From: an uncultured Gemmatimonadales bacterium
GTDB taxonomy: Bacteria; Gemmatimonadota; Gemmatimonadetes; Longimicrobiales; RSA9
Direction of reading: 5' to 3'
DNA length: 64,000 bases
NCBI GenBank assembly: GCA_963708135.1
Contig: OY970192.1
Coordinates: forward strand, 5,056,001 to 5,120,000
In this document: positions 47,596-63,766 of the stretch, piece after piece
How positions within the stretch are numbered: the stretch's first letter is position 1
Layout of the letters: each line of letters starts with the position of its first letter
The notes under the pieces: model-generated
Databases searched by the model: none
What the model was told of the DNA's origin: nothing
Seen by the model: only the letters and a program-made list of their open reading frames with translations
Program-made: the position numbers and the translations under genes

Positions 47596-47713
47596 TTCGG
47601 GATGAGGGGCTGGCCGTGCGGGTCCATGGGTATCGCCGGAATGACCGGCGGACAAGGACGACATCGCCGAGCGGGGCGGGTACCCGCCGCTGGCGCTGCC
47701 GTTTCGCGCTCAC

Positions 47714-47735
47714 TGTCGGTGGGTCCTCTTACGTT
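47714..47735 (+). promoter_or_regulatory. PafBC-type (RecA-NDp-like) promoter motif oriented toward the cas operon
   Basis: TGTCGG-tgggtcctct-TA-cgt-T is an exact TGTCGG-N10-TA-N3-T, about 120 bp from the PafBC-like gene start. Confidence 0.65.
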
Positions 47736-48142
47736 GTGGAGCGTGGACGGTGAAGCCGCCGGCGGGCGGCGGCGTTGACCGCGGCGACGTCGCCATCGAT
47801 TCTCTTGCGCGGATCCGGAAGCGGGACTACCCTGGGCTGTGGCGCTGGCGTTCGAAAGAAACCGTCGGCGCCGCGTTCCCCGGCCGCGATTCCGCTCTGA
47901 CCCCCTCCGGACGAGTCGATGGCCGCAACCGCCGGTCGCGCCAGCAGTGGCGCGACCGACGCGTGTCCGCCGCCTGCGCTCTGACCAAGGGTTCCGTAGG
48001 TGAACGTCCGACACTGGCCTCTTCGACCTATCGGGCCCGAAGAATGGGCGGGGTAACGCCCTCGGAGGTCCGAAGGAGGGCCGGTGATTTTTCGTGCCGC
48101 TCGACCTCATGAATTCGTTGACCCTGGACATGGAGTGAACCA

Positions 48143-49375
48143 GTGGCCAATGCGCTGACGCACAATGTGCTCACCCGCGCCGTGACGGGTGGCGCCGCGG
48201 CGTTCCGCTGCCGTCGAAGGCTGCAACCTGCCGGTGGGCCTGGAGACAAGGTTTTCCCGCCGACCTTCGCCGGGGCGGTGTACGCCATCGAGCAACGGCG
48301 CCTGCCCGACCGGGAGGCGCCCGTCCAGTGCGTGCTCCTCGATAGCGTACAGAGCCAGGCGAACCGGATGGAGCTGGCGCTGCAGGAGGCGGTGGATTCG
48401 GGCCGCTTGCGGTTGCCGCTCGTGGTGGTCAACTTCTCGGAGCACGATCCGACGGGCGACCTCGAGGCGGACGAAGAGGCAGGCCGATTCCTGGACGCCG
48501 TGGGCAGGATCACGACCCTCCAGGCGCCACACCGCCTCGCCGACGCGATTCTGCGCGACAGCGAGCTCGACGGCGTGCGATTCCGCAAATCCGAGAAGGG
48601 GAAGACCCTGAACCGCGCGAGCCTCGCCAATGCGACGCCGCTCTTCGAGCTCTGTCCGACGGCGCTGGTCTTCGGGATGTGGGATTCGACGGGGCCGAAG
48701 GGTGGCCTGGGCCCGAAGTTCGAGCGTGCGGTGGTCTCGGAGATCGTGGGGATCGGCGCGGAGTGGAAGGACGATTACCGGGCCCGCGGCGTGCGCCGTG
48801 ATCCGCTCGAGATCACGAAGAACGTGATGGTCCTCGCCGACGGCGACCGGGCCCTCAGCAAGGTGGCCGAGGGCAAGGAGAAAGGCGTCCGCCCGTCAGA
48901 GATCAATCACTCGAGCGTCCCGTTCGACTCCCCCAACTCCGGCGTAACGATCGAATACGCCGAGCAGGTGACGACGCTCTCCCTGATCGCGCTCCGACGA
49001 CTCCACTTCCCGATCGATGGCGCCACGACGACCGAAGCAGACGCGTCCGCCCGCACCGTTCTGGCCGCGCTCGGCCTGTGCGCCGCCACCCTCGCATTCG
49101 AGAACGGCGTCGGACTGCGCTCACGTTCGCTGTTGTGGCCGGAGGCCTCCATCACGTGGGAGCTCCTGGAGCGGCCGGGGAAGGAACCCCAACGCTATTC
49201 GCTGGCGTCTGCGGATACGCAGCAGCTGCTGGCCGACGCTGTGGCGGCGGCCCGATCCGCCGGCCTGCCCTGGCCGGAGCAGCCGCTCCTGCTCAAGCCG
49301 TCTGCGGCACTGGTCAACCTGGTGCGCCGCAGCCAGGTCGAGCTCGTCCGCCAGGGCGCGGCGGAGGACGGATAA
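48143..49375 (+). CDS. csb1: Type I-G (I-U) Cas7 backbone
   Basis: LQPAGGPGDKVFPPTF, VLLDSVQSQANRME, APHRLADA, PTALVFGMWDS, GLRSRSLL. Confidence 0.92.
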   Translation: MANALTHNVLTRAVTGGAAAFRCRRRLQPAGGPGDKVFPPTFAGAVYAIEQRRLPDREAPVQCVLLDSVQSQANRMELALQEAVDSGRLRLPLVVVNFSEHDPTGDLEADEEAGRFLDAVGRITTLQAPHRLADAILRDSELDGVRFRKSEKGKTLNRASLANATPLFELCPTALVFGMWDSTGPKGGLGPKFERAVVSEIVGIGAEWKDDYRARGVRRDPLEITKNVMVLADGDRALSKVAEGKEKGVRPSEINHSSVPFDSPNSGVTIEYAEQVTTLSLIALRRLHFPIDGATTTEADASARTVLAALGLCAATLAFENGVGLRSRSLLWPEASITWELLERPGKEPQRYSLASADTQQLLADAVAAARSAGLPWPEQPLLLKPSAALVNLVRRSQVELVRQGAAEDG

Positions 49376-49377
49376 GC

Positions 49378-50955
49378 GTGTTCTCGCTCGGCATCCGCTA
49401 CCTCAATGGCTTCTCCGTCGCGGCCGAGCCGGACTCCTATGAGCGGGCCGAATGGCCGCCCCACCCGGGCCGCGTGTTCATGGCTCTGGCGGCCGCCCAC
49501 TTCGTTACCGGCGGCGACCCGGCCGAACGCGCGGCGCTCGAGTGGCTCGAGGCGCTGGAGGACGCGCCCGCGATCCGGGCGGGCGAGCACCACGAGCGGG
49601 CGGTCGTGATCCAGTACGTGCCGGTGGACGACAAGGCCGGCCCCGCGAAGGCGCTGCTGCAATCCCTACCGCTCACGCGCGACCGGCAGCCGCGCACCTT
49701 CGCGCATGCCGCCCTCGACGACGACCTGGTCTACCTGAGCTGGCCGGGCGCCGAGCCGCCCGCGCGCGTGTTGGGCGCGCTCGAGACACTCTGCTCCAAG
49801 GTCACCCGCATCGGCCATTCGTCATCGCTGGTGCAGATGTGGATCGCCGATGAGGACGAGGCTGGTGAGCCGAACTGGGTGCCGGATGATTCGCGCTCCG
49901 CCCTGCACCTGCGCACTGCCGGACCGGGTACGCTCGCCGACCTCGAGCGGTTGTACGACGAAACGGCTGTCGAGACTTACGCCTCGCTCAAGGCGGCGGC
50001 GGAAGACGACACCGACAAGAAAGCTCAGCGCGCCGCGAAGAAGCAGCTGAAGCACGAGTTCGGAAACCGGCCCCCGCAGCAGCTCCGCCCACGACTCTCG
50101 ATCTACCAGGGCTATGCGCGGCCGGCGACGCGCGGCGAGGATGGAGCCGCCTCGGGCACGGTGTTCAATCCACACCCGCTCGTGCTGATGCTCGAACGGG
50201 ACGAGCCGGTGCGGCGCGAGCTCGATCTGCCGTGCACGCTCGCCGTGGTGCAGCGCTTGCGCGACGCCGTCCTCAGCCACAGCAACGGGTTGCCGGACCG
50301 GATCCGGTCGCTGCTCTCCGGCCACGAGCCGGATGGCACGCCGCTCGACGCGCCGCATCTTGCCTTCCTCCCCCTGGCCTTCGTAGGCCACCCACATGCC
50401 GACGGCCGCCTGCTCGGCGTCGGCCTCGTCTTTCCGGCTGATACTGCGCGCGAGGAGCGGCGCCTCGCGCTCCAGGCGGTCGCGCGCGTTCGGCACCTCG
50501 CACTCGGACGGCTGGGCAGGTGGAGGATTGCCGGGGAACGCCGCTCCAGTCCGCCATGGAACCTGCGGCCCGAGGCTTGGACCGCCTTTCCGCGCGGCGC
50601 GACACACTGGTCGACCGTCACGCCGGTCGTCTTCGACCGCCACCCGAAGAACAAGGAGCGCGCCGCGTACGAGCGCGAGGTGGCCGCCATGATCGCGGGC
50701 GGTTGTATGCGTATCGGCCTGCCCCGGCCGCGTGAGGTGATCGTGACGCAGATCTCGGCCCACCCTGGCGTGCCACCCGCGTTCGAGTTCCCACGGCTTC
50801 GGCGCAAGGACGGCAGCGAGCGCCGCCACACGCACGCGATCCTCGTCTTCGATCGACCGGTGTGCGGGCCGGTGCTGATCGGCGCGGGGAGGTACAGGGG
50901 GTATGGGGTGGGGAGGGCGATACAGGCGGCCCCTCAACCCCACTCATCGGGCTGA
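49378..50955 (+). CDS. csb2: Type I-G Cas5/Cas6 fusion
   Basis: AEWPPHPGRVFMALAA, LEWLE, HLAFLPL, WSTVTPVV, C-terminal Cas6 G-loop GPVLIGAGRYRGYG. Confidence 0.92.
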   Translation: MFSLGIRYLNGFSVAAEPDSYERAEWPPHPGRVFMALAAAHFVTGGDPAERAALEWLEALEDAPAIRAGEHHERAVVIQYVPVDDKAGPAKALLQSLPLTRDRQPRTFAHAALDDDLVYLSWPGAEPPARVLGALETLCSKVTRIGHSSSLVQMWIADEDEAGEPNWVPDDSRSALHLRTAGPGTLADLERLYDETAVETYASLKAAAEDDTDKKAQRAAKKQLKHEFGNRPPQQLRPRLSIYQGYARPATRGEDGAASGTVFNPHPLVLMLERDEPVRRELDLPCTLAVVQRLRDAVLSHSNGLPDRIRSLLSGHEPDGTPLDAPHLAFLPLAFVGHPHADGRLLGVGLVFPADTAREERRLALQAVARVRHLALGRLGRWRIAGERRSSPPWNLRPEAWTAFPRGATHWSTVTPVVFDRHPKNKERAAYEREVAAMIAGGCMRIGLPRPREVIVTQISAHPGVPPAFEFPRLRRKDGSERRHTHAILVFDRPVCGPVLIGAGRYRGYGVGRAIQAAPQPHSSG

Positions 50956-50961
50956 TAGCCT

Positions 50962-51948
50962 ATGTCTGGACCCGCCGCCACCTGGGACTTCACGGCGCAG
51001 ACCGACCTTTGGACAGGTAGGGTCGTTGGGATCAACGAGCGGAAGGGGAGAGTGGAGCTGCGGGAGAGCATCAAAAACTCGCGGCTGATCCCAACCGGCC
51101 TGCTCGGGTCCATCCGCTGGTGGTTCGAAGTTGTGGTGCGCGGTCTCGGCGGGAACGCATGCGACCCCACCAGGACCAAGTGTCAGGATGGCAAACACTG
51201 CGTCGTCTGCGAGCTGTTCGGTTGCACCGGCTGGGCCCGGAAGTTCCGTTTCCAGGTGCTGGACGGGAATGGAGAGATCCTGGGCTCCGCGATCAAGAAG
51301 GATTCGAAGTTCAAGGTCCGATTCGTACCGCTACGGCCCATCGCCAGCGAGGAAAGGGCGCTGCTCGACCTCACCCTCCGGCTCATCGCCGAGTACGGTG
51401 CGGTCGGTGGGAAGACAGTGCTCAAGCCTTCAGACGAGCCGAACCGCGCGGACGCGCTGCACCATCTCGACTATGGTGTGGTGTCTCTGGACAGCAGCCC
51501 CGGGGTCGCTGTCGGGGACGAGCGAACGCTGAAAGGCTATCTCCGCCAGGTCTCGCAGCGAGCCGCGCACGACACAAGCAATGCCACCTGGGCCTCGCTC
51601 GCGAACTTCTGGTGCGTGAACGGCAGGTACTTGACGCGCGCGAAGGCTGATGCGAGCACATTCAACAGGGTTTTGGGCCGCCAGGAACCCAAGCAGCAAG
51701 CGCAGACGCTTGCGAGCAACGGAAACGCAGATCGCTGGCTCGCCGGCTCACAGCAGGAGAGCAAGAAGGTCTTCAGCTTCAAGAATCCGCCCCGGACGTT
51801 CGGCTTCGTGCTGCCGGGGACGATTTCACTCGACGAGATGAAGACGCGGCTGCAGCCAGCCTGGTCGGACCTCCGGGATGGCGAGTTCCTCACCGGCGCG
51901 GATGTCCTGTCGAAGCTCGTTCCCGCGGCATCGGAGCCCGCTCGATGA
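50962..51948 (+). CDS. cmr1: Type III-C RAMP Cmr1
   Basis: TDLWTG, TGLLGSIRWWFEVVVRGLGG.ACDP, CVVCELFGCTGWARKF, YGAVGGK. Confidence 0.88.
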   Translation: MSGPAATWDFTAQTDLWTGRVVGINERKGRVELRESIKNSRLIPTGLLGSIRWWFEVVVRGLGGNACDPTRTKCQDGKHCVVCELFGCTGWARKFRFQVLDGNGEILGSAIKKDSKFKVRFVPLRPIASEERALLDLTLRLIAEYGAVGGKTVLKPSDEPNRADALHHLDYGVVSLDSSPGVAVGDERTLKGYLRQVSQRAAHDTSNATWASLANFWCVNGRYLTRAKADASTFNRVLGRQEPKQQAQTLASNGNADRWLAGSQQESKKVFSFKNPPRTFGFVLPGTISLDEMKTRLQPAWSDLRDGEFLTGADVLSKLVPAASEPAR

Positions 51949-52859
51949 CCTTCGATCACTACGCCGCCTTGGCGGACCAGCGGACGTGCCCGCGCTCAGT
52001 GTCGAAGCCGGGCGGGTTCGCGTCCGGGTTCGTGGACGGCTGCACCGTATGGTCGGGAACGGAAGCGGAGAAGAACAACGCGCGGCGTTGCTACCTCAAA
52101 CATCTGGATGGCGCCGCTTCGCTCGCGCCCCCCCCGGAGCTGAAGCTCGCTTCCGATTTCACCGCGCTCCCCGCCCCGGGCTGGATCGGGATCGAGGTCG
52201 ACTTCAAGCTCGAAACGCCGTGGTATTCCAGGGATGACCGGCGCTTCCACGTTTTGGACAACCCGGTGCGTAAGGACCGCGTCTTCGGCGTGCCCTTCAT
52301 GGCGGCGGCGAGCTGGAAGGGACTCCTCCGCTGGGCCTGCAGGATGCGTGCGGGTCTGCTCGAGCACCTGGCGTCGCAGGGCGGCAAGCTGGCCGGGTGG
52401 GACGAGCCCGAGTGGATCGTGCACCTGCTCGGCAACGAGAAGGGTGAAGGCGAGTCGTTCCAGCGTGGTGCGTTGGCGTTTTACCCGACGTGGTTCGACC
52501 GGCTCGGCTTTGAGGTCATCAACCCGCACAGCCGCCGGACGCGGGCGGGCACGCAGCCCATCCACTACGAGGTCGTACCGCCGGGCGCGACCGGCGTCCT
52601 GCAGCTACTGTACGCACCGTTCGTCGGCCGAACCGCCCAACCTGCCGGTCACGGGCTGATTGATCTGATCGGCTCCATCGAGGACCTGCTCGAAACGTAC
52701 GGCATCTCGGCCAAGCGCACGGCAGGTTGGGGCACGGCGACCGCCACCGCGTGGAAAGCGTTCCGGGTTGGAGAGCCCGGAATCCAAGCGGAGAACGCGT
52801 CGGACCTCGCGCGGCAATTGGAGCCCTGGCTGGAATCAACGGAGCGCGGCTATGGCTGA
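51945..52859 (+). CDS. cmr6: Type III-C RAMP Cmr6
   Basis: TPWYSRDD, DNPVRKDRVFGVPFMAAASWKGLLR, EVINPHSR...GTQPIHYEVVP, GISAKRTAGWG. Confidence 0.85.
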   Translation: MTFDHYAALADQRTCPRSVSKPGGFASGFVDGCTVWSGTEAEKNNARRCYLKHLDGAASLAPPPELKLASDFTALPAPGWIGIEVDFKLETPWYSRDDRRFHVLDNPVRKDRVFGVPFMAAASWKGLLRWACRMRAGLLEHLASQGGKLAGWDEPEWIVHLLGNEKGEGESFQRGALAFYPTWFDRLGFEVINPHSRRTRAGTQPIHYEVVPPGATGVLQLLYAPFVGRTAQPAGHGLIDLIGSIEDLLETYGISAKRTAGWGTATATAWKAFRVGEPGIQAENASDLARQLEPWLESTERGYG

Positions 52860-55581
52860 GTTTGCGCCCGCCGCGACACTCCGCGACCACCGCTCGCTGC
52901 TCTTGTCCATGGAGGCTGTGGGGTGGCTGCACATGACCGGCAAGTGCCGCCTGGCGTTCCTGCGCGAGCACGGCGGACAGGGGTCGGGCTACGACGACCT
53001 CCGCTGGTTCGAGAACGAGAGCCCGCCGTTCCCGTGGGACGAACTGCTGGGCTGGCTCAGGACGCGGTACGCGAACGCAAACGGCACTGCGCTCCCGTGG
53101 CCGGGCACGCTCACCGGTTTCCTGACTCGGCACCGGGGTCGGAACGCGGGACTCCTAGGTCTGCTGCAGGCGGGCCATGGCATTGCCTCCGGCATCGAGA
53201 AGAACATGCCTGCCGCGGCAGCGAAATATCTCCAGCAGGATGCCACGCACATGTGGCTCTCCTCGGCCTTCGGACGCCCGGTGCGCAATCTGCTCGCGGA
53301 TCCGCCCGGGTCGTTGAGCCAGGCAGGCTGGGCGCGGTTGCTCGAGGAGATGCAGCGCATCCTACGAGACCTCCATCAGCTCGGCTCCGCATCCGCCACG
53401 GATCTCGGCTCGTGGTCAACCTGGCGCGAAGATGCCATCGGCGCCGGGAGCGTCCTCCGGCACGCGTTCGGCTCCACGCTCGCGGAAACCCGCCTCCCGA
53501 ACAATGAGGTCACGCTCTGGGATCAGTCCTACGTCGCCGCGGCGCTGTTCAAGAGCGCCCTGGCCAGTGCCCTGCTCGACGGTAGGTCCTTCCCCTGGAA
53601 TGACGCGGCAATCAAGAGCCAAGTCCGCTGGCGGCTGCTGACGGTCGGGATCGGAGCGGATCACTTCGAAGCGCGGGCCGTGCGCATCGGCGACTGGACT
53701 GGGGCACGGCTGGCGCTCGACCGCTTCTTCGGAGGCGTGCGACGACTCGTCGAAGTCGACCTGGCGGTGGGCTCGTTGCTCTACGCCGACGGCGGCGTAC
53801 TCGTGTTCTCGTTTCCTGGCGAGCGCACTGATGGCGCTGGCGCTGTGGATGCATCCGGGTGGACGGATTGGCTGCAGGAGGCCGTGGACCAGTCCGCGCG
53901 CGGGCTCGCGCTCGAGCTGCCGCCGTATGTGCGCCTGACCGAATCGACGCGCTCGCTGGTCCCGATGACGCGGGAGATCGCGAACGCGCGAAGCGTTCTC
54001 ACCATTCCCGTGCACCGCGCGTGGGACGTCACCGGATCCGGCGAGACCGGCCACGTGTGTCCCGTGTGCCTCGTGCGCCTGAACGGCGCGCCCACCGACA
54101 AGCAGAAGCCGTGCGCCACCTGCCGCGAGCGCCGAACCCACCGGCTCGATGCCTGGCTCGGGGGCGAGCAAGGGGACGACACGATCTGGATCAGCGAGGT
54201 GGCGGACCAGAACGACCGTCTCGCCCTCCTTACGCTGAGTCTCAATATTGAGCCGTGGCTGGACGGCAGTCGGCTGGATGCGCTGCGTACCCAGGCAGTG
54301 TCCGAATGGCGCCGTCACAACCCGACGCTCGGAGGGAGCTCCAACCCGATTGATTCCGCTAAGCCGTTTGCAAGCCTCGCTGCATACATACAGGGGACCC
54401 TCGGAAGCTTCGACGCGAACAATCCGGTGCTCAGGAGTCTGCAGGAAGGCTATCAGCACGACACCGGCTGGGAGACGTTCTTCCAGAAGGTGGTCGAGGA
54501 CCGCGCGGACGCGCCTCTCTGGAACTCCCTGGATGACCATGGCAGGGCCCGCTGGCTCCTGCATCAGCTCTTCTGCAAGCTCGCCTCTCCTGGTCGCGTT
54601 CACCGCTTCTGGCGGCAGGCGGAGGGCTTCTTCGCCAACCTGCTGGCCGAATTCCGGCAACTAGCAGCGGCGGACGCGAACCGCTGCCGCGTGCGGCGGC
54701 TCGTGCTGACGCCCGGCGCAGACGGCGACCTCTCCGTGTGGCGAGACCGCGAGGTCTACAACGGCCGGGTCGGCGAAGCGCCGCTCAGCCTCCTCTACCG
54801 TGGCCAGAGCCAAGACTTCCTCACGGTCTGCAACCTGGCGCGCCTGCTGCGTGCGGAGGAGGACGGCGAGGCGCTGGTCCGGCGCTCGCAGGAAGGGATC
54901 GAGCTCCGCGGCGGCGACAGCGACCTGCCGGTCAGGTTCCGGATCGCGAGTGTGGAGCCCGCAGATGGCCGAGCCGGCGTCTACCATCCAGTCATCCCCC
55001 TGGAACTGAGCCCGTTGCGCTTCCGGGTGCTGCTTCCGCTCTCCGCAGCGTCGGCCTGCGTCGAGTGCGCGATCGGCATCTGGAACGACGAGATGGCCCG
55101 CGTCTGGGACCGTCTCCCCCTCCGCGCCGGCATCGTTGCCTTTCCACGCACGGTGCCGTTCCAGGCGGTGATCGAGGCTGCCCGCTCCCTCGAGCATGCT
55201 CTGGAAGAGCAGCCGGCGGAGGAGACGTGGCGCGTCACCGAGCGTGACGCCCGCGACGGGATCGTCGCGTTCCGACTCGTTCGTCGCGACGGCGGATCCG
55301 AGCTCCGCTCGATGCCGGTCACGTTACCGGACGGCCGGCGCGATGTGTTCTACCCGTACTGCCGCGTCGAGGATGGGGCAGTGCGCACCGCGCTCGACTT
55401 CCAGCATCCGGACGGCCAGACCTTTCGCCACGCGCTCGACCTGCGCCCTGGCGACGGCATCGTCGTGGCGCCGTCCCGCATCGCCGGTGTCTTTCTCGAC
55501 AGTAGCGCGCGCCGCTTCGACGAGGTGCAGGTGCGCCCGCTGGCGGAGTGGACGCGGATGCGCTGGTGGGCAGAGCCGTGA
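52852..55581 (+). CDS. csx11: Type III-C Cas10-like large subunit, probably 3'-truncated
   Basis: LAETRLPNNEVTLWDQSY, EVDLAVGSLLYAD, Zn ribbon CPVC...CATC, TIWISEVADQNDR, WLDGS, SPGRVHRFW; ends abruptly after FLDSSARRF. Confidence 0.85.
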   Translation: MAEFAPAATLRDHRSLLLSMEAVGWLHMTGKCRLAFLREHGGQGSGYDDLRWFENESPPFPWDELLGWLRTRYANANGTALPWPGTLTGFLTRHRGRNAGLLGLLQAGHGIASGIEKNMPAAAAKYLQQDATHMWLSSAFGRPVRNLLADPPGSLSQAGWARLLEEMQRILRDLHQLGSASATDLGSWSTWREDAIGAGSVLRHAFGSTLAETRLPNNEVTLWDQSYVAAALFKSALASALLDGRSFPWNDAAIKSQVRWRLLTVGIGADHFEARAVRIGDWTGARLALDRFFGGVRRLVEVDLAVGSLLYADGGVLVFSFPGERTDGAGAVDASGWTDWLQEAVDQSARGLALELPPYVRLTESTRSLVPMTREIANARSVLTIPVHRAWDVTGSGETGHVCPVCLVRLNGAPTDKQKPCATCRERRTHRLDAWLGGEQGDDTIWISEVADQNDRLALLTLSLNIEPWLDGSRLDALRTQAVSEWRRHNPTLGGSSNPIDSAKPFASLAAYIQGTLGSFDANNPVLRSLQEGYQHDTGWETFFQKVVEDRADAPLWNSLDDHGRARWLLHQLFCKLASPGRVHRFWRQAEGFFANLLAEFRQLAAADANRCRVRRLVLTPGADGDLSVWRDREVYNGRVGEAPLSLLYRGQSQDFLTVCNLARLLRAEEDGEALVRRSQEGIELRGGDSDLPVRFRIASVEPADGRAGVYHPVIPLELSPLRFRVLLPLSAASACVECAIGIWNDEMARVWDRLPLRAGIVAFPRTVPFQAVIEAARSLEHALEEQPAEETWRVTERDARDGIVAFRLVRRDGGSELRSMPVTLPDGRRDVFYPYCRVEDGAVRTALDFQHPDGQTFRHALDLRPGDGIVVAPSRIAGVFLDSSARRFDEVQVRPLAEWTRMRWWAEP

Positions 55582-56290
55582 CGGCGGCGGACACTGCGGT
55601 GAGCCGGACTGTCCGATCTGCACGGTTTTCGGCTTCGCCCGTGGCAACAGCGGCGGCTTCGCCGGGTTGGCGGCATTCAGCGACGCGCACGTGCTCCTGT
55701 TTCCGGTCGCCACGCGGGAGGGGCCCGTGTGGATCACCTGCCCGGGCGCGCTGCGCGGCCTGAGCGCGCTGAGCGAGCTGCCCGATATCAGCGAGAACGC
55801 AGTCCTCCGCGCTGGCAACGCCACAGGCTCGTTGAACCTCGGCTGGCTCGTCCTCCCCGTGAAAGGCCGGAACGGCGAGTGGGCGAGCGTGGATACCGAG
55901 CTCGGTGCGCTCGGTGTACCGGATCACGTTAAGCGGACCTGGGCGATCATCTCCGACAAGGTCTTCTCGCACGTCGTGAACAGCAATCTGGAGGTCCGCA
56001 CTTCGGTCTCGATCGACCCCGAGACCGGTGCCGCGGAGGGAGGTGCGCTCTTCACCTATGAAGCCCTCCCGCGCGGGACGGTGCTCGTGTGGCAGGTCAC
56101 GTGCCGGCACCCCGGGCATTTCCGGGTCGGAAAGAGCGACGTGAGTGCCGTTGCCGATGCAGGGGTGGTTCATAGCGTCGTCGGCGAAGGGCACGGCTAT
56201 CTCGAATTCCTGGGCATCGGCGGGATGGGCACCCGTGGCATGGGGCGCTTACGGGTCCTGAATGCTGCGGCAGGCGAGGGAGGCACGTGA
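55559..56290 (+). pseudogene. cmr4: Type III-C Cmr4 lacking its N-terminus and start codon
   Basis: HCGEPDCPICTVFGF, FSDAHVLLFPV, VNSNLEVRTSVSIDPETGAAEGGALFTYEALPRG, LGIGGMGTRGMG; no start or N-terminal RAMP strand upstream. Confidence 0.8.
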
Positions 56291-56655
56291 TGGAGAACCT
56301 GGACCTCAGGTGCGCGGAGCTCGGCGCGACGCTCGCGGGTGCCCACGGCGTGGAGGAGAAAACCCTGACGGACGCGCTGGCGGTTCTTGAGGAGCAGGGC
56401 GTCTATGCCTTCTTCCTCTACCTGAGCGCGCCCGGAAGAAATGGCGGAGGTGAGGTGTCCCGAGCGTGCCATAAGTTCCTGCAGCAGGAGCCCAGCGACA
56501 AGGCGCTCCTGCCTGCGGGCGGCGATGTCCTCAGGAGCGTCCGCGAATCGCTCGCGAACGAGCTCGACAACCTGCTCCTCGCGAGGGACCTGTTGCGCCA
56601 GGCTCTGGTCTACGGCCGCTATCACGCCAAGGCCGAATCCCGGGGTATCCGGTGA
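56287..56655 (+). CDS. cmr5: Type III-C small subunit Cmr5
   Basis: NLDLRCA, ALAVLEEQGVYAFFLYL, LLARDLLRQALVYGRYHAKA; position in the III-C gene order. Confidence 0.8.
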   Translation: MMENLDLRCAELGATLAGAHGVEEKTLTDALAVLEEQGVYAFFLYLSAPGRNGGGEVSRACHKFLQQEPSDKALLPAGGDVLRSVRESLANELDNLLLARDLLRQALVYGRYHAKAESRGIR

Positions 56656-57530
56656 TTTGGAAGCTGTACCGTTGGGTTTGGCAGCTCGAAGGGCCCCTGT
56701 ACGTGGGTATGGCGCCCGCTGGCGTGCTGAACCGGTGTCGGCTCTACGCGCCTGCCCGTGCGGTGTGGGGCGCGCTCACCTCTGAGCTAGCCCGCACAAC
56801 GGCGACGGGTTTTCCCGAATACGAGGGCGTTGGCAGAATGCTTCAGGAGAGCGCACGCTTCACGTACCTCTTTCCGGCCGAGCCGGTCGAGGGTGATTGG
56901 CGAGGCTGGCTTCCACACTATGCCACCGAACACGGGCTCGAGTGGAGACGCGAGGACCTGCCGAATGACCCCGGCAAGAGAGTGCCGGACCGCACGTTTC
57001 GCCGCCGGCTGCTCGACACCCGTGCAGGGACCGCAATCGAGCCGGAGACAGACACTGCCGCCGATGGCAGTTTGAGAGAAACGGAGTGCTTGGGCGCCAT
57101 GTGGCGGCGGAACGGAGCCGGAGGGGAGCCGTCTCCGGCTGCGCTCGTGGGCTATGTCTTTCTGCGTGACGGCGATGGTCGGTTGCGCGTTGAAGCGATC
57201 GATACACTCTTCCTGGGTGGAGACACGCGCTACGGGCTTGGGCGGGTTCGCCTGGTTGAGTGCGACGTGGCGAATGGGGTTTTCGGAAATGAGACGAGGG
57301 TCTCAGCGGGCACACCCGCGATCGTCAGCGCGGCCGTCCTGGCGCACGCTTCGAGCGGTGAGGATCTCATTGGTGCGTTGGAGCGGGTGGCAGGATGGGA
57401 TCGACTGAAGGCGAGCAGGGTCACTCATTTGAGTAGCTCGGTCGCGTGGACGCCTGGTTCCAGTTGTCGCCACGGCGAACGGAGAATTTGGCGGGTGCGG
57501 GGTGACGGAATCTGGCAGCCAGGACAGTAG
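56652..57530 (+). CDS. cmr3: Type III-C Cas5-group RAMP (Cmr3)
   Basis: GPLYVG, APARAVWGALT, TAIEP...AADGSLRETE, LGGDTRYGLG G-loop; last gene of the canonical III-C order. Confidence 0.75.
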   Translation: MIWKLYRWVWQLEGPLYVGMAPAGVLNRCRLYAPARAVWGALTSELARTTATGFPEYEGVGRMLQESARFTYLFPAEPVEGDWRGWLPHYATEHGLEWRREDLPNDPGKRVPDRTFRRRLLDTRAGTAIEPETDTAADGSLRETECLGAMWRRNGAGGEPSPAALVGYVFLRDGDGRLRVEAIDTLFLGGDTRYGLGRVRLVECDVANGVFGNETRVSAGTPAIVSAAVLAHASSGEDLIGALERVAGWDRLKASRVTHLSSSVAWTPGSSCRHGERRIWRVRGDGIWQPGQ

Positions 57531-57686
57531 GGTTGTACCGTTCGCCTCTCAGACCGTCACGCCCGTCGGTGGACGGCGTACCCGAGTGACGCGCGGTGGT
57601 CAACCGGCACGCCGATCCTCTTCGACCCGCACATACCGGCACACATACACGTCTGAGGGTGATCCGCCAACGTCTTCGAGAATGAC

Positions 57687-58007
57687 ATGATCGACATCGA
57701 CCAACGCGTACCTGAGATCGTACAACGCCTCACCCGCGTCAGCCGGCCGGACCGTATCATCCTGTTCGGCTCGGCCGCCATGGGCAGGATGACGGCGGAC
57801 AGCGACATCGACGTGCTGATCGTGGAGCCGGAGGTCGAGGACGCACGGTCGGAGAGCCGGCGGCTCCGGGAGGCACTGGCAGGCCTCGGCATCGCGATCG
57901 ACGTAATCGTGATCAGCACGGAGCGCTTCGAGGAGACGAAGGGCGTGATTGGAGGAATCGCGTACCCGGCGAACAAATACGGGAAGGTCATCTATGAAGC
58001 CGCCTGA
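57687..58007 (+). CDS. Minimal nucleotidyltransferase (MNT)
   Basis: IILFGSAAMG...SDIDVLIV. Confidence 0.88.
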   Translation: MIDIDQRVPEIVQRLTRVSRPDRIILFGSAAMGRMTADSDIDVLIVEPEVEDARSESRRLREALAGLGIAIDVIVISTERFEETKGVIGGIAYPANKYGKVIYEAA

Positions 58008-58425
58008 AGATGTCAGGCGCGAGTTCGTCCGGGATTGGATCGACAAGGCCGAACGGGATCTCGGCGCCGCTCGGCACCTGCTTTCCGGGATGGAATGGCT
58101 GGCGGCGGGCGCGGCGTTTCACGCGCAGCAAGCGGCCGAAAAATACCTGAAGGGCTTTCTGGTCTGGCATCAGGTCGAGTTCCCGAAGACCCACGACATC
58201 GCGCGCCTGCTCGAGCTGATCGGAGCGGTAGATCGGCAGCTTGCGGCATCGCTGCCCAATGCCACAAGTCTGAGCGCGTACGGAGTGGATTACCGGTATC
58301 CGGGTGATTACCCCGAGGTGTCAGCGGCGCAGGCCCGCCAGTGTGTCGAAGTCGCGAGCGCCGTTCGGGAAAAGGTGCTTGGTCAGCTCCCACGCCTAAC
58401 GGCTGAGGAGGAAGAAAGCCGGTGA
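57994..58425 (+). CDS. HEPN domain protein
   Basis: FHAQQAAEKYLKG, PKTHDI, YRYPG. Confidence 0.88.
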   Translation: MKPPEDVRREFVRDWIDKAERDLGAARHLLSGMEWLAAGAAFHAQQAAEKYLKGFLVWHQVEFPKTHDIARLLELIGAVDRQLAASLPNATSLSAYGVDYRYPGDYPEVSAAQARQCVEVASAVREKVLGQLPRLTAEEEESR

Positions 58426-61361
58426 CCCCACTCCCCTCCTTCCCCGACTTCTTCCGCGCCCTCTGGACCTACGACCCGTTCCCGTGGCAGTCCATGCTCG
58501 CGGAACGCGTTGCCGCCGGCGCATGGCCGGCCGCGCTCGACCTGCCCACGGCGAGCGGCAAGACGGCGTGCATCGAGATCGCGCTCTACGCGCTCGCGGC
58601 GCAGGCGGAGCAGCCGACCGCCGAGCGCACGGCGCCGCGGCGCGTCTGGTTCGTGGTGGACCGGCGCATCGTCGTGGACGAGGCGTTCGATCGCGCGACG
58701 CGGCTCGCCGGGAAGCTGGCGGACGCCACGAGCGGGTCCCTGAAGAGCGTCGCCGATCGGCTGCGGGAGGTTGCAGGAACGGAGCGGCCCGTGGCGGTGG
58801 CGCGGCTTCGGGGCGGGGTGTTCCGCGACGACGGATGGGCGCGGCTGCCGTCGCAGCCGGCGATCATCACGTCGACCGTGGACCAGCTCGGCTCGCGGCT
58901 CCTCTTCCGCGGTTACGGCCACGGGCTGCTCGCGGCGCCGATCTACGCCGGCCTGGCCGCGAACGACAGCCTGATTCTGCTCGACGAGGCGCACTGCTCG
59001 GTGCCGTTCCTCCAGACGCTGCGCGCGGTCGAGCGCTTCCGGGGCCCGGACTGGGCCGAGGCCCCGCTGGTCACGCCGTTCGCCTTCGCGATCCTGTCCG
59101 CGACGCCTCCCCCGGACATCCCGGCCGAGTCGGTCTTCCCCGGCGCGGATCGCGCTGCGGCGCTGGATCACGACGTGCTGCGCCAGCGGCTCCGCGCCTC
59201 CAAGCCTGCCGAGCTCGTCGTTGTGAAGGCGAAGAGAGGCGCCGCCGCGGATCCGTTGATCGCCGCGGCGATCGAGCGTGCGCTGGGCCACGTCGGGGAG
59301 GGAAAGCGCCGGATCGCGGTGATGGTGAACCGCGTCCGCACCGCCCGCGATGTCGCCGAGGGGCTCGAGGACACGCTCGGCGGGGATGCCCATGTTGTAC
59401 TCCTCACCGGCCGCCTACGTCCCTTCGACCGCGATGCGCTCGTCGAACGGTGGACCCCGTTCCTGAAGGCGGACAGGCCGGAATCGGCGGCCAAGCCGAT
59501 CGTGCTGGTCTCGACCCAGTGCCTCGAGGTCGGTGCGGACTTCAGCTTCGACGCGCTGGTCACCGAAGCCGCGAGTCTGGATGCGCTGCGGCAGCGCTTC
59601 GGCCGTCTCGACCGGATGGGCACGGCCGGAACTTCGCCCGCCAGCATCCTCGTGCGTGAGCGAGATGCGGAACCCGGGAAGGCGGAGCCGGACCCGATCT
59701 ACGGCGCCGCGATCGCGAACACGTGGACGCTGCTCGAGGCGCACGCGGTCGATGGCAGAGTCGACTTCGGAGTCGAGCCGCTGGAGGCGATGCTCGGCGG
59801 CCTCGAGGACCTGGGCCCCTGCCTCGCGCCCGCGCCTGAGGCGCCGGTGCTGCTGCCGGCGCACCTCGACCTGCTGTGCCAGACCGCGCCGGCCCCGGTG
59901 CCCGAACCGGACGTGCAGCTCTTCCTGCACGGGAAGGATCGCGGGGCGCCGGAGGTTCAGGTCACCTGGCGCGCGGACCTGGACCCGGAGCAGCCGGCGA
60001 GCGTCTGGATCGAGACCGTCGCCCTGTGTCCTCCCGTCAGCGGCGAGATGCTGTCGGTGCCGCTGTACCAGCTTCGCGCTTCCCTGGGCCACGGCGAAAC
60101 AGCGCCGGACACTGGCGACGTCGAGGGTGTTCCGGCCCCGGATGAAGCCGCAGCCCGGGGCGCCCGACCGTTCCTCCTCTGGCGCGGGCGCGGCCGTGAT
60201 CGGTCCCGTCGGACGCGTGATACGCGGCTGATCCGTCCCGGGGATGTCGTCGTCATTCCGGGATCGTACGGCGTGGGCACGCTCGGGCAGCCGCCCGTCA
60301 AGGAAGGAATCGGGCCGGACGGAATCGACCTCTGGGAGCGCGTCCTGGGGCCGGCGGGCCAGCGGTCCGCCATGCGTCTCACGCGTGCGACGCTCGCGCG
60401 CTGGTTGGGCTGGCGGCCGGTGGCGGACCTGCTCGTCGCGGTCGAGGATCCCGAGCCGGACCGGGATGAGATCGCAGCGCGAATCGCCGCGGTGGTCGCT
60501 GACCAGCCCGGGGGCGGCGAGGATGTTGCCGCGGCCCCCCCGCAATGGTGGCGCGAGCTGCTGCGGACCGTCCTGGCCGGCCGCCTGGAGGTGCACCCCG
60601 GGGGTGGGATCATCCTGTTCGCCCGCGCCAGGCCGAAACGCACCGAGGAGCCCGACCTCTTCGCGGATGACGATGACCTTGCGTCGGCGACCGGGGTCGA
60701 GGTACCGCATGACCTCCACGCCGATCTCGTCGCGCGGACCGCCGGAAGAACCGCGCGGCTGTGTCTCCCGGAAGCGCACGTTGCCGCACTGGAAAGGGCC
60801 GCGGACTGGCACGACACGGGCAAGCTCGACGAGCGTTTCCAGGTCATGCTCCACCAGGGAGATGAGCTGGCTGCGCTGCAGGCAACGGCCCCCCTCGCCA
60901 AGTCCGCGTGGATTCCCACATCTCCGGCGCACCGCCGGGAGATCCGGGAAGCCGCGCGGCTCCCCGACGGTTTTCGGCACGAGATGCTGTCCTTGGACCT
61001 CGCAGACCGGTTCGCGCCAGGGCTCGAGGGTGAGCACACGACGGACCTGTTGCTGCACCTCGTCGCGAGTCACCACGGACATGCCCGTCCCTTCGCGCCG
61101 GTCGTCTCGGACCCTGATCCGCCTCCGGTGATGGGCACGCGGCGCGATGTCGCCTTCGAGCTGAAGGCCGCCGAGCGCCGCGATCTGCCGCCCGCGCACC
61201 GGCTGGACTCCGGCGTGGCAGACCGGTTCTGGCGCCTCGTTCGGCAGCACGGGTGGTGGGGCCTCGCCTATCTCGAAGCCATTCTCCGGCTGAGCGATTG
61301 GTACGCGAGCGAGTTCGTTCCTGCTGAGCTGAAGGCTTCGGGCGAGGAGGAGGCCGCGTGA
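58422..61361 (+). CDS. cas3: Type I-G Cas3 helicase with C-terminal HD nuclease
   Basis: PFPWQ, LPTASGKT, VVDRRIVVD, DEAH, STQCLEVGAD, QRFGRLDR; HD domain WHDTGK, RHE, SHHG, LRLSD. Confidence 0.95.
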   Translation: MTPLPSFPDFFRALWTYDPFPWQSMLAERVAAGAWPAALDLPTASGKTACIEIALYALAAQAEQPTAERTAPRRVWFVVDRRIVVDEAFDRATRLAGKLADATSGSLKSVADRLREVAGTERPVAVARLRGGVFRDDGWARLPSQPAIITSTVDQLGSRLLFRGYGHGLLAAPIYAGLAANDSLILLDEAHCSVPFLQTLRAVERFRGPDWAEAPLVTPFAFAILSATPPPDIPAESVFPGADRAAALDHDVLRQRLRASKPAELVVVKAKRGAAADPLIAAAIERALGHVGEGKRRIAVMVNRVRTARDVAEGLEDTLGGDAHVVLLTGRLRPFDRDALVERWTPFLKADRPESAAKPIVLVSTQCLEVGADFSFDALVTEAASLDALRQRFGRLDRMGTAGTSPASILVRERDAEPGKAEPDPIYGAAIANTWTLLEAHAVDGRVDFGVEPLEAMLGGLEDLGPCLAPAPEAPVLLPAHLDLLCQTAPAPVPEPDVQLFLHGKDRGAPEVQVTWRADLDPEQPASVWIETVALCPPVSGEMLSVPLYQLRASLGHGETAPDTGDVEGVPAPDEAAARGARPFLLWRGRGRDRSRRTRDTRLIRPGDVVVIPGSYGVGTLGQPPVKEGIGPDGIDLWERVLGPAGQRSAMRLTRATLARWLGWRPVADLLVAVEDPEPDRDEIAARIAAVVADQPGGGEDVAAAPPQWWRELLRTVLAGRLEVHPGGGIILFARARPKRTEEPDLFADDDDLASATGVEVPHDLHADLVARTAGRTARLCLPEAHVAALERAADWHDTGKLDERFQVMLHQGDELAALQATAPLAKSAWIPTSPAHRREIREAARLPDGFRHEMLSLDLADRFAPGLEGEHTTDLLLHLVASHHGHARPFAPVVSDPDPPPVMGTRRDVAFELKAAERRDLPPAHRLDSGVADRFWRLVRQHGWWGLAYLEAILRLSDWYASEFVPAELKASGEEEAA

Positions 61362-62503
61362 CCGGCTCCGGCCAACCGACCACTGCGGTCGAGCTGACGG
61401 CGCTCGACGGCGCCAATCCTCTCGCCTTTCTCGCGGCGCTCGGCACGCTGGTCGCGCTGCATGCCGCGGGCGAGCGCAATGCGCGCCTGCGCTGGCGCGC
61501 GGGCGCGAGGTGGACGCCGGTCATCGATGCCGCGCCGTCGAGCGACCCGGACGCGTTCTGCGCAATCGTCGCGCATGCCCTCGAAGGACGGGAGGTGCCG
61601 GTGGACGCGGCCGCGGCCGCCGTGGATGCGGGCCGGCGCCACTCCCACGCGCGAAAGGCCCTCAAGGCCAAGCGGCAGGAGATCAAGGCCCGCGGGCTGA
61701 GAGGTGCGGAGCGTCGTACGGCGATGGAAAACGAGCTCACGCCGCTCGACCGCGAGGTCGCGCTGGCCCGTGCGGTGTGGCTGGAGGCGCTGCGCGCGGC
61801 CGTGGCGCGCCCCGAGCTCGCCGTGGGCGACACGATAAAGTGCACGCCCGAGGAATACCGCCGGTACGCGGATGCGGTCCTCGAGGGCTCCTCCGCGGCC
61901 GACCGCGACCCGATCGATCTGCTCGCCGCGTTCGGCACGGACGCGTGCCTCGCTCGAAAGGGCGACCTCATGGAGCCGACGCCGTTTCAGTTCATCACGG
62001 GCTCGGGCCACCAGTTCTTTCTGAGGACTGTCCGCGACCTCCTGAACGAGGTCTGCGCGGCTCGTGTCAGGGCCGCCCTCTTCGAGCCATGGACCTACTC
62101 CGACGAGAAGCTGTCAATGCGCTGGGATCCCGTGGAGGACCGGCGCTACGCGCTGTCGGACCGCAACCCTTCGGACGAGGCAGCCCGTACCGTCTGGATG
62201 GCGAACCTGCTGGCGTACAGCGGACTCGCCCTGTTCACATGCGCACCGGGCAGAGGCACGCTGCGCACCGTCGGATGGCGCCAAGTCGATGGCGACCCGA
62301 TCCTGACCTGGCCGCTCTGGCAATTCGCGGCGCGGCCGGAAACCGTCCGCTCACTTCTCGCCCTACACGAACTGTCTGAGGAACCGCCCGACCACACTGC
62401 GCTCCGGCAGCGTGGCGTCACGGCGGTGTTCCGCTCGCGACGAATCGAGGTCGGGCACGGGGCGAACATCAAGCTGAACTTCAGCCCGGCGCGCGCGGTG
62501 TAG
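61358..62503 (+). CDS. Type I-G short large subunit (Cas8g2/Cas8u2, Csb3-like)
   Basis: LDGANPLAFLAALG, FITGSGHQFFL, MRWDPVEDRRYAL, TWPLW; directly follows cas3. Confidence 0.8.
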   Translation: MTGSGQPTTAVELTALDGANPLAFLAALGTLVALHAAGERNARLRWRAGARWTPVIDAAPSSDPDAFCAIVAHALEGREVPVDAAAAAVDAGRRHSHARKALKAKRQEIKARGLRGAERRTAMENELTPLDREVALARAVWLEALRAAVARPELAVGDTIKCTPEEYRRYADAVLEGSSAADRDPIDLLAAFGTDACLARKGDLMEPTPFQFITGSGHQFFLRTVRDLLNEVCAARVRAALFEPWTYSDEKLSMRWDPVEDRRYALSDRNPSDEAARTVWMANLLAYSGLALFTCAPGRGTLRTVGWRQVDGDPILTWPLWQFAARPETVRSLLALHELSEEPPDHTALRQRGVTAVFRSRRIEVGHGANIKLNFSPARAV

Positions 62504-62730
62504 GGTTGTTGGACCGCTGCCTTGAACCAGGAGGCCCGCGAAGCGGCGGCGCCTGACGGCGCTCCGGCCTTCGTCCACACCTCTCGACAGAGAAAGCGAT
62601 CAGCCGCTCGCGCGCCACCAAGGTCTACCTCGCCCATCCAGAACGCCGAGGTGTCTTTCCGTGGTCTCGCACGAACGGCTATCTTGCTGAGTTGCGAACC
62701 GCGCGGGCCGAGAGCCAGATGGAGGCATGC

Positions 62731-62961
62731 ATGCGACGCGAATTTACGGCGGTGTTCGAGCGCGACGGCGAATGGATCGTCGCCTACTGCCCCGAGGTCC
62801 CCGGCGCCAGTGGCCAGGGGCACACCAGGGACGAGGCCCGCCAGAGCCCCAGCGAGGCCATTGCCCTGATCCTCGAGGTCCGGCGGGAGGACGGGCTGCG
62901 GGGCGTCCCGCTGGACGCGGAAGCCGAAACGATCGCCGTCGAAGTCCGCGATGTCGCCTGA
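62731..62961 (+). CDS. HicB-family antitoxin (no HicA seen)
   Basis: RBS GGAGG; FTAVFERDGEWIVAYCPEVPGASGQGHTRDEAR. Confidence 0.8.
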   Translation: MRREFTAVFERDGEWIVAYCPEVPGASGQGHTRDEARQSPSEAIALILEVRREDGLRGVPLDAEAETIAVEVRDVA

Positions 62962-63018: not shown

Positions 63019-63366
63019 ATGAAAGAAATAGTGCCGAGTGAGAACGTCTCCCGGACCGACGCCACCATCCGCACCATGGTCAACCGCATCGTCGAGCGGT
63101 TTCAGCCGCGGCGCGTGTTGCTCTTCGGATCGCACGCGCGCGGTACCGCGACGCGGCACAGCGACGTCAACCTGCTCGTTGTATGCGACGAGATCGGACA
63201 CAAGCGCCGCCTGGCCATCGAGATCGGCCGTGTGCTCTCGGATCTGCCGATCAGTAAGGACATCATCGTCACCACGCCCGAGGAGATCAGCCGGCGAGGG
63301 CACCTGGTGGGCACGGTCCTCCGTCCCGCCCTTCGCGAGGGCAAGGTGATGTATGAGCGATCCTGA
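63019..63366 (+). CDS. Minimal nucleotidyltransferase (MNT), DxD changed to DxN
   Basis: VLLFGSHARG...SDVNLLVV. Confidence 0.85.
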   Translation: MKEIVPSENVSRTDATIRTMVNRIVERFQPRRVLLFGSHARGTATRHSDVNLLVVCDEIGHKRRLAIEIGRVLSDLPISKDIIVTTPEEISRRGHLVGTVLRPALREGKVMYERS

Positions 63367-63766
63367 GGTTCTGGCCGAAGTCGGCCGCTGGATACGATAC
63401 GCCGCGGAAGATGTGCGCTTCGCCGGAGCGGCTCTGGGGCAATCCGGGGCGATGCCGCGGCACGTCTGCTACAATGCACAGCAGGGAACCGAAAAAGCGC
63501 TCAAGGCAGCTCTGGTTTTCGAGCAGATCGAGTTTCCTTTCCGGCACGATCTGGACGCGTTGCGGAACCTTCTCCCGCAACACTGGGGCGTGAAGACCGA
63601 CCAGCCTGATCTCCGAGCGTTGAGCGAGTGGGCGGTCGAAGCCCGCTATCCGGGTGACTGGCCGGAGGCCACCCGCGAAGAGGCCGAAGCCGCGGTCCGA
63701 CAGGCGCGTGCCGTCTACGAGTCAATCGCACGGGATCTGCGCGAGCGCGGATTTTACGATGCCTGA
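63353..63766 (+). CDS. HEPN domain protein
   Basis: YNAQQGTEKALKA, FRHDL, ARYPG. Confidence 0.88.
   Translation: MSDPEVLAEVGRWIRYAAEDVRFAGAALGQSGAMPRHVCYNAQQGTEKALKAALVFEQIEFPFRHDLDALRNLLPQHWGVKTDQPDLRALSEWAVEARYPGDWPEATREEAEAAVRQARAVYESIARDLRERGFYDA

Follow-up and report, generated by a model that had tools for sequence, protein, structure and literature searches.

A 64-kb stretch of DNA (64,000 nucleotides; hereafter the window) from an uncultured Gemmatimonadales bacterium carries, at positions 48143..62503, a CRISPR-Cas operon in which a type III-C cassette lies among the genes of a type I-G system. The window spans positions 5,056,001-5,120,000 of a genome assembled as one contig of 5.45 Mb with ~72% G+C. 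Our reading, to which we assign a probability of about 0.72, is that this is a composite I-G/III-C locus whose III-C cassette was inherited in its nested position, would borrow CRISPR RNAs (crRNAs) when intact, and has here very probably been killed by a deletion.

Genes were typed with the Pfam, NCBIfam/TIGR and PADLOC hidden Markov model (HMM) libraries. Twelve open reading frames (ORFs), all on the plus strand, fill the interval (Table 1), and the profiles bear out the order given in a preliminary description made from the DNA letters, csb1-csb2-[cmr1-cmr6-csx11-cmr4-cmr5-cmr3]-[MNT-HEPN]-cas3-cas8g (MNT, minimal nucleotidyltransferase), along with its coordinates, including the csb2 stop at 50955 and the cmr1 start at 50962. 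Neighbouring genes overlap by 4-14 nt (8 nt for cmr6/csx11, 14 nt for MNT/HEPN) or are spaced by 2-6 nt, with two exceptions, a gap of 156 nt between cmr3 and the MNT gene and the broken joint between csx11 and cmr4. The type I-G interference module (csb1, csb2, cas3g and cas8g) looks intact. Csb1 is full length, with 58% identity to its counterpart in the related genome locus L024 over residues 1-398 of 410. Csb2 is also full length and probably starts at GTG 49378, 2 nt past the csb1 stop. Cas3g, likewise full length, has a helicase followed by a C-terminal HD nuclease (Cas3_HD match at residues 784-964). The product of the last gene matches a family named 'type I-G, Cas3-extension family' in NCBIfam; it matched neither TIGR04106 nor, by sequence, any solved structure in the PDB, Cas8g included. 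This family has 829 homologues at E<=1e-5, the best 120 listed being 372-408 aa long apart from one of 569 aa, and members were found in 5 of the 60 related genomes searched, all from the same family or order, which makes 6 of 61 when this genome is counted. A gene of this type holds the large-subunit place after cas3g in all four related loci with that order, and we classify the product, by its profile matches and position, as a predicted large-subunit-class I-G protein that is neither Csx17 nor of the GSU0052 type.

Four related genomes (loci L023-L026) carry csb1, csb2, cas3g and the NF049934-type gene contiguously and in one orientation. In L023 and L024 csb2 and cas3g overlap by 4-8 nt, and cas4/cas1 diverges upstream in L023, L024 and L026, where the fetched DNA extends that far. 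Judged by these relatives, csb1-csb2-cas3-cas8 is the native order of this I-G variant. Because csb2 abuts cas3g in the four genomes, the III-C block together with the MNT-HEPN pair represents an insert, 7.46 kb long from cmr1 to HEPN and lying exactly between csb2 and cas3g, as the preliminary description had proposed for the III-C block.

We assembled related cassettes from 8 Cas10c loci of species-representative genomes and 80 of 171 confirmed metagenome-contig matches, giving 74 distinct loci once those with identical cas10c DNA were merged. All 74 have the six genes in the same order, or as many of them as the contig allows. Orthologues of cmr1 in these cassettes share 49-58% identity. 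One metagenome contig, L031, has the order csb1-csb2-cmr1-cmr6-csx11-cmr4-cmr5-cmr3-cas3-cas8g-cas4/cas1, in which csx11 encodes 996 aa and cmr4 is complete. Its interference proteins share 50-75% identity with those of the window, and its cas4/cas1 fragment 42%. The I-G proteins of L031 (csb1 75%, csb2 61%, cas3 60%) are nearer to those of the window than are the proteins of the taxonomic relative L024 (58%, 51% and 49%), which argues that the composite travelled as a unit. Since L031 carries the nested order intact, this comparison suggests that the nested architecture was inherited and is no local accident. In a Cas10c tree the window falls in a well-supported 13-row group with L031, L053/55 and L036, on an end branch of 0.49 (median 0.12).

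Other arrangements of the two modules exist, all with their genes in a single orientation: L053 (L055 has the same sequence) reads III-C-cas3-cas8g-csb1-csb2, L036 reads csb1-csb2-cas3-cas8g-III-C, and L090 (L089 has the same sequence) reads cas3-cas8g2-csb1-csb2-cas2-cas4/cas1-III-C-array; L093 and L097 have the cassette with cas4/cas1, cas2 and arrays. In the window, in L031 and in L053, cas3g comes after cmr3, an adjacency that L036, L090 and L093 do not show; coupling of the Cmr complex to Cas3g is speculative. Flanks were evaluated in 39 distinct loci, those whose sequence extends 4 kb or more past the block on one side: I-G interference genes are present in six, and I-G genes, an array or adaptation genes in eight. 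We also considered whether the I-G association is clustered on the Cas10c tree; it is not, the 4 changes being matched in 230 of 500 shuffles.

A different history, in which the composite was not acquired whole and the cassette, behaving as a mobile element, moved recently into the I-G operon that this lineage already had, seems unlikely to us. It would account for the distribution among the 60 relatives, where Cas10c was found in none and the I-G variant in five, and it fits the presence of the same cassette inside many unrelated operons as well as the G+C fraction of the III-C block, 0.65-0.69 against 0.72-0.77 over most of the window. However, the lowered G+C extends beyond the block to the whole CRISPR locus, L031 shows the same nested order with I-G proteins nearer to those of the window than L024's, and the cassette is flanked by no transposase, integrase or conserved end sequences. 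No transposase or integrase was seen beside the cassette in the other loci examined either, and a comparison of cassette ends in 24 contexts found no conserved DNA, matches occurring solely between close relatives.

The canonical III-C set and order, cmr1-cmr6-cas10c-cmr4-cmr5-cmr3, is present in the window, and its integrity fails at cmr4. At the joint between csx11 (cas10c) and cmr4, weaker similarity in the cmr4 frame reaches back to about 55580, and csx11, having left its frame, runs into a stop at 55581. Only 53 nt separate the end of the csx11 match from the start of the cmr4 match, compared with 530-657 nt (median 564) in all 65 loci where both genes were matched. Cas10c has 909 aa here and 990-1019 aa in relatives, in which Cmr4 has 322-356 aa. 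By tblastn, the relatives' Cas10c proteins align to the window up to their residue ~899, at window position 55563, and their Cmr4 proteins from residue ~45-90 onward in another frame. The PADLOC profiles are covered at 6-695 of 785 (Cas10c) and 61-241 of 245 (Cmr4) in the window, compared with 5-785 and 8-243 in the orthologues of L005. Cas10c scores 222.6 bits against TIGR02682, under the cut-off of 248.95, as expected of a truncated protein. In alignment A2, with five of five relatives, it lacks the last ~95 residues. In alignment A1 the cmr4 remnant lacks its start codon and ~60-85 N-terminal residues, including a block nearly invariant in five of five relatives that consists of a glycine-rich loop and then an Asp-containing strand; we take this strand to be the place of the catalytic Asp in Cmr4/Csm3 proteins. 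The first in-frame starts left to the remnant are TTG 55667 and GTG 55691. The missing csx11 and cmr4 pieces were absent from the rest of the genome in a tblastn search (best E 0.017).

Taken together, these comparisons indicate that a deletion of ~0.5 kb cost cas10c its 3' end and cmr4 its 5' end. Because of this loss the III-C part of the locus is most probably a dead passenger, and a working III-C complex is very unlikely when Cmr4 has neither start codon nor first strand and Cas10c has no C-terminal domain. The module is a III-C member by descent, pseudogenised, and does not have the intact Cas10 and Cas7 backbone of a functional effector. A larger loss is seen in metagenomic data. Of the two runs compared with the region, X1 (soil, which may itself be the source sample of the assembly) and X2, the former contains one contig that joins 52552 to 56770, skipping 4217 bp from within cmr6 to within cmr3, and a second contig that still covers 53659-53952, inside csx11.

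The preliminary description had seen in this operon a DNA-targeting and an RNA-targeting effector under one promoter. Both gene sets are indeed present; the truncation of csx11 and cmr4 had been overlooked, as had the lack of an array, cas1, cas2 and cas4 in the window and a continuation of the locus by ~20 kb. We regard it as quite improbable that a single transcript yields two active effectors here, sharing crRNAs or with the Cmr complex handing targets to Cas3g. The co-oriented genes with their tight or overlapping junctions, the intact cmr1, cmr6, cmr5 and cmr3, the succession cmr3-cas3g-cas8g in the window, L031 and L053, and an array repeat that carries the usual 8-nt tag at its end would all suit it. 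Against it stand Cas10c without ~95 C-terminal residues and Cmr4, the backbone and RNA-cutting subunit, without its start codon and 60-85 residues; with these parts gone a dual effector is unlikely to work in this genome. The larger block deletion in the metagenome and the lack of cmr3-cas3g adjacency in L036, L090 and L093 point the same way. That the arrangement is an assembly chimera, a thought invited by the single-contig assembly, by the polymorphism of the region and by a soil run that holds just 45% of the region's sequence words (the source may be a metagenome), can be set aside almost entirely, since separately assembled X1 contigs bridge the csb2/cmr1 junction (50899-51798) and cover cmr3 through the HEPN/cas3g junction in overlapping pieces (56770-58546), and the same order recurs in L031, a contig of a different data set.

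How an intact composite might operate can be outlined from the Cas10c clade and from the I-G partner. None of 72 full-length Cas10c matches has GGDD, and 69 of them have GW[LF]HMxGK near the N-terminus; the window protein has GWLHMxGK and no GGDD, and the zinc-finger cysteines are retained in the clade (alignment A5). In the excerpted texts of PMC8730458 and PMC12669027, the III-C polymerase/cyclase is described as inactivated and most III-C loci as having no arrays; an excerpt of PMC3150331 likewise treats Csx11 as an inactivated Cas10. The cassettes studied here have no Cas6 and no adaptation genes, and usually no array. In L090, L093 and L097, arrays stand directly beside the cassette and belong to the same repeat family as the array of this genome whose repeat ends in ATTGAAGC. 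The C-terminal Cas6 domain of Csb2 cuts 36-nt I-G repeats, leaving an 8-nt 5' handle, and Cas8g recruits Cas3, according to the part of PMC9638904 consulted. The absence of Cas6 from the cassette, the cutting of 36-nt repeats by Csb2 and the shared repeat family beside cassettes suggest that crRNAs could be shared in intact composites. In such a scheme the cassette would take its crRNAs from the host system, here the I-G array; the Cas6 domain of Csb2 would cut the ATTGAAGC-ending 36-nt repeats, and the resulting crRNAs would load both complexes. The III-C complex, with its dead Cas10, would bind transcripts under crRNA guidance and cut them through Cmr4 only, without a cyclic-oligoadenylate signal and probably without an HD DNase, and the I-G Cascade with Cas3g would attack DNA.

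Several observations weigh against this account of the locus or narrow it. Neither X1 nor X2 has a contig between 54536 and 56476, and the joint itself (~55570) is given by the assembly alone. The four other III-C genes, cmr1, cmr6, cmr5 and cmr3, remain open and full length; therefore the loss is recent, or the remnant may keep some role. As many as 31 of the 39 cassettes have no I-G gene, adaptation gene or array in the fetched DNA, so that I-G is no obligate partner. The sharing of crRNAs between I-G and III-C in intact relatives is plausible, its basis being gene content and repeat similarity only. From alignments, we presume GWLHMxGK to be a degenerate HD motif, an HDxGK-type motif being expected there, and GGDD to be the cyclase signature; a sequence comparison of Cas10c with solved structures gave no match.

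Table 1. Genes and features of the window, with host operons of related cassettes (window positions unless a locus is named)
Feature	Coordinates	Strand	Evidence or position
Regulator candidate, 816 aa, two WYL domains + WCX + PafC-type HTH	45214..47664	- (divergent)	Pfam WYL 5.2e-31, WCX 1e-21, HTH_PafC 2.5e-17; PADLOC CRISPR-associated WYL 7.8e-57
RHH-domain gene, 3' remnant	47708..48163	+	blastn 79% over 484 nt to intact downstream copy (L004 1870-2985); tblastn
cas7g/csb1	48143..49375	+	PF09617 3.3e-55; TIGR02570 63 bits (cut-off 38); PADLOC Cas7g 6.9e-52
cas5-6g/csb2 (Cas5-Cas6 fusion)	49378..50955	+	TIGR02165 271 bits, 1.8e-80 (cut-off 45), 2-487/492; PADLOC Cas5/6g 6.7e-117
cmr1 (Cas7-group RAMP), first cassette gene	50962..51948	+	TIGR01894 43.5 bits (cut-off 28.65); PADLOC Cmr1 5.8e-9
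cmr6	51945..52859	+	PADLOC Cmr6 7e-64; Pfam RAMPs
cas10c/csx11, 3'-truncated	52852..55581	+	PADLOC Cas10c 'CAS-III-C effector_LS' 316 bits, 1.4e-94, profile 6-695/785
Deletion joint	55563..55616	+	csx11 homology stops at 55563; strong cmr4 homology by 55616, in other frame
cmr4 remnant	about 55616..56290	+	PADLOC Cmr4 profile 61-241/245; alignment A1
cmr5	56287..56655	+	PADLOC Cmr5 'CAS-III-C effector_SS' 2.3e-28
cmr3 (Cas5 group)	56652..57530	+	PADLOC Cmr3 5.4e-69, full length
MNT (MntA-like)	57687..58007	+	PF01909 5.4e-10; NF047752 3.7e-8
HEPN-domain protein, MNT partner	57994..58425	+	PF05168 2e-24; stop overlaps cas3g GTG start
cas3g	58422..61361	+	TIGR02621 708 bits, 2.6e-212 (cut-off 400), 1-854/854; PADLOC Cas3g 2.1e-229
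Cas8g-class protein, 381 aa	61358..62503	+	PADLOC Cas8g PDLC01514 5.6e-75; NCBIfam NF049934 239 bits, 7.4e-71
Second MNT-HEPN pair, start of decayed continuation	63019..63766	+	PF01909 1e-8; PF05168 2.2e-17
Hma host	L056 7993-15247, L104 8029-15184	co-oriented	block between HmaA and HmaB
Hma host	L086 7888-15264	co-oriented	block between HmaB and HmaC
BREX host	L082 8174-15219, L084	co-oriented	block between BrxC and PglX
BREX host	L008 7452-15221 (L029 same sequence)	co-oriented	pglX split: N-part profile 2-625, C-part 659-953 of 1210
DISARM/Dpd-like host	L068 8302-15463, L012	co-oriented	block between DrmMI-type methylase and DruE-like helicase
Type III restriction-modification host	L045	co-oriented	block after type III restriction subunit
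Mre11-Rad50/HerA host	L010	co-oriented	block between Mre11/Rad50-like genes and HerA

Two of the III-C assignments in Table 1, cmr5 and cmr3, rest on PADLOC as the sole naming basis, Pfam and NCBIfam having given no match. Compared by sequence with solved structures, Cmr5 had no match and Cmr3 chance-level matches alone (E >= 0.28).

The habit of nesting is not confined to I-G. PADLOC typing covered 37 flanking ORFs, for the most part large ones; 34 were drawn from a list of 116 in 25 loci and three from L005 and L012, and the flanks of the genome loci were scanned with NCBIfam. Of the 37 ORFs, 33 match a defence family at E <= 1e-8, and the genes touching the block elsewhere are mostly parts of other defence systems, co-oriented and separated by very small gaps. 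The hosts include Hma, BREX, DISARM/Dpd-like, type III restriction-modification (R-M) and Mre11-Rad50/HerA operons. The N-terminal part of pglX ends at about the same point in L030 as in L008. The cmr3 stop overlaps an ATG (as ATGA) in five contexts (L104, L086, L068, L008 and L031). In the first four the host ORF that follows could begin at this ATG, as though the cassette supplied its start codon; in L031 the overlap is a motif only, because cas3 starts 118 nt further on. The ORF starts in these loci are longest-ORF calls, which makes the exact overlaps provisional. One could propose that the Cas10c clade is a portable guest cassette that habitually settles, co-oriented and translationally coupled, in helicase-based DNA-targeting defence operons and that its nesting is functional, the cassette acting as an RNA-guided transcript sensor coupled to the helicase-nuclease of the host (Cas3g here) or guarded by it, as PrrC reportedly is by EcoprrI, which we consider a doubtful proposition; a plainer alternative is that the cassette merely borrows a host promoter. 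The accessory genes of type III given in an excerpt of PMC6546367 include a methyltransferase cluster and one of HKD+Snf2 type, which may reflect this same neighbourhood as viewed from the type III side.

The locus runs ~20 kb past the end of the window, through decayed I-G copies and insertion sequence (IS) elements to cas4/cas1, cas2 and an array. This continuation was followed in L004, whose positions 1-20000 are genome 5118001-5138000. The second MNT-HEPN pair is followed by an RHH-domain gene, a C-terminal csb2 fragment 71% identical to csb2, a second cas3g that is just 32% identical and has its N-terminus in another frame, and a GSU0052-type cas8g2 interrupted by a transposase gene of the IS630 family. 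Next comes a transposase gene of the IS1182 family, and then a further csb2 fragment, a cmr3 tail (~last 37 codons) and an MNT gene whose product is 85% identical to that of the window, this group lying just before cas4/cas1. The downstream cmr3 tail with its MNT gene looks like a third, near-complete loss of a III-C block. The continuation thus adds two more I-G modules, both decayed; of the interference modules only the first is complete, and the whole locus is eroding through duplications, deletions and IS insertions.

No CRISPR array, cas1, cas2 or cas4 was found in the 64-kb window; its 41 TRF rows and 10 repeat families proved to be plain tandem repeats and not a CRISPR array. The adaptation genes and array lie 10-20 kb downstream of the I-G module. 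A Cas4/Cas1 fusion (cas4g/cas1g) is encoded at L004 12546-14399 (NF049935, 703 bits; cut-off 560), followed at L004 14407-14697 by a 96-aa ORF called Cas2-like on the strength of its sequence and of tblastn matches of 38-45% in other loci. The array, at genome 5132886-5140399, has 67 repeats of 36 nt ending in ATTGAAGC, in three blocks (40, 17 and 10) split by two stretches of ~1.4 kb. The first of these interruptions holds an ORF of 411 aa on the opposite strand with no family match. A second array of the genome has 29-nt repeats with a 61-nt period, and weak Cas1 matches lie 9 kb from it (genome ~3644332-3645762 and 3654424-3655083 for the two together); this is probably a separate I-E-like system.

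The MNT and HEPN genes of the insert are adjacent, overlapping ORFs, as in type VII toxin-antitoxin pairs of the MntA/HepT class, which is their predicted function; the MNT protein scores 33 bits against the curated MntA equivalog NF047752, below its cut-off of 60. Such a pair accompanies the III-C cassette in 4 of the 39 distinct loci. Toxin-antitoxin pairs also occur within the model I-G locus, according to the Tsu figure legend of PMC9638904, and a table in PMC6546367 includes a nucleotidyltransferase cluster among III-B/C accessory genes. A 10-nt word, GTAGGGTTGT, overlaps the stops of cmr3 and of the cas8g-class gene (57527-57536 and 62500-62509). These are its two exact copies in the window, and there are four when one-mismatch matches are included, against 0.62 expected. 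The word was found in no locus of other organisms, and the flanks of the window copies are unrelated, with no further alignment. Upstream of csb1, the double-WYL gene diverges from the operon and looks like an insertion into an RHH-domain gene, the 5' part of which is found at 43241-43907 (blastn 85% over 687 nt to the downstream copy), since the two RHH halves stand ~3.8 kb apart with the WYL gene between them. A consensus scan of 47000-64000 for promoters and terminators gave one promoter-like and five terminator-like sites, not above shuffled sequences, and so lends the proposed single promoter no support.

Elsewhere in the window, 61-nt-unit tandem arrays occur at 36682-37001 and, in the genome, at 867371-867869, 3189156-3189533 and 3190762-3191155. 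They have 5-8 copies with 89-97% matches and an internal inverted repeat in each unit, the unit sequences differing while the period is the same; they are not CRISPR arrays, because whole units repeat. Related 53/54-nt tandem repeats lie 6.8 kb apart at 19864-20164 and 26868-26996, and 31692-31957 is a run of 14-nt and then 7-nt repeats. The segments 32472-34331 and 34498-36357 have equal sets of ORF lengths (619 aa on the minus strand; 321, 587 and 158 aa on the plus strand) and may have arisen by tandem duplication of ~2 kb, or else a mobile element is present there twice.

Among known systems, the cassette is closest to type III-C (the Csx11/Cas10c class of the Makarova classification), with which it shares the gene order and a divergent Cas10 that has no cyclase signature. 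It also shares with III-C, as presented in the excerpts of PMC3150331, PMC8730458 and PMC12669027, the lack of an array, a Cas6 and an adaptation module of its own. It differs in the truncation of cas10c and cmr4, in its position within the operon of another system and in the absence of an N-terminal HD dyad from its clade. On the I-G side, the prototype order is cas3-cas8-csb1-csb2; here it is csb1-csb2-cas3-cas8, interrupted by the III-C block, and the predicted large subunit belongs to the NF049934/PDLC01514 family, not to Csx17. Cas7g, the Csb2 fusion, Cas3g, Cas4/Cas1, Cas2, 36-nt repeats and toxin-antitoxin pairs within the locus are shared with type I-G, known from the Thioalkalivibrio sulfidiphilus model (PMC9638904) and the GSU0051-0054 prototype.

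Hybrid composition as such is not new. The type III modules of Pyrococcus furiosus and Marinomonas mediterranea reportedly use type I crRNAs. Their composite type I and type III loci (Cst/Cmr and I-F/III-B, respectively) feature in the abstracts of PMC4666368, PMC4436667 and PMC5576922, and the CRISPRCasTyper preprint recognises hybrid loci, in which a pair of interference modules goes with a single adaptation module. As in those two organisms, an array-less type III module here stands beside a type I system whose crRNAs it would presumably use. In contrast, their modules are III-B with an active Cas10 and a separate Cas6, whereas the module described here belongs to III-C and its Cas10 is dead, the Csb2 fusion would process the crRNA, and the module sits between the Cascade genes and cas3. 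A looser parallel is prrC, a single gene said to be embedded in the EcoprrI type I R-M locus with functional coupling to its host reportedly shown; there too a self-contained defence module is co-oriented among the genes of a host operon, although for the III-C cassette it is the nesting alone that is shown. The 'III-C' of the CoCoNuT paper denotes CoCoNuT types and not CRISPR, and was discarded as a precedent. The literature searched, which mostly left out subscription journals and classification supplements, contained no account of a III-C cassette nesting within operons of I-G, BREX, Hma or DISARM-like systems, and no experimental paper on type III-C. To our knowledge, III-C is the least studied type III subtype.

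Altogether, we regard the locus as a decayed hybrid type I/type III locus, and the nesting habit of the Cas10c cassette as the part that deserves follow-up. The window shows III-C lodging in I-G and also its loss, by two deletions in one population and with a third remnant downstream. L031 is the intact counterpart in which the sharing of crRNAs between a Csb2-processed I-G array and III-C could be addressed. With a dead cyclase and no HD signature in this clade, the host systems are the best available clue to what type III-C puts out beyond RNA cutting.

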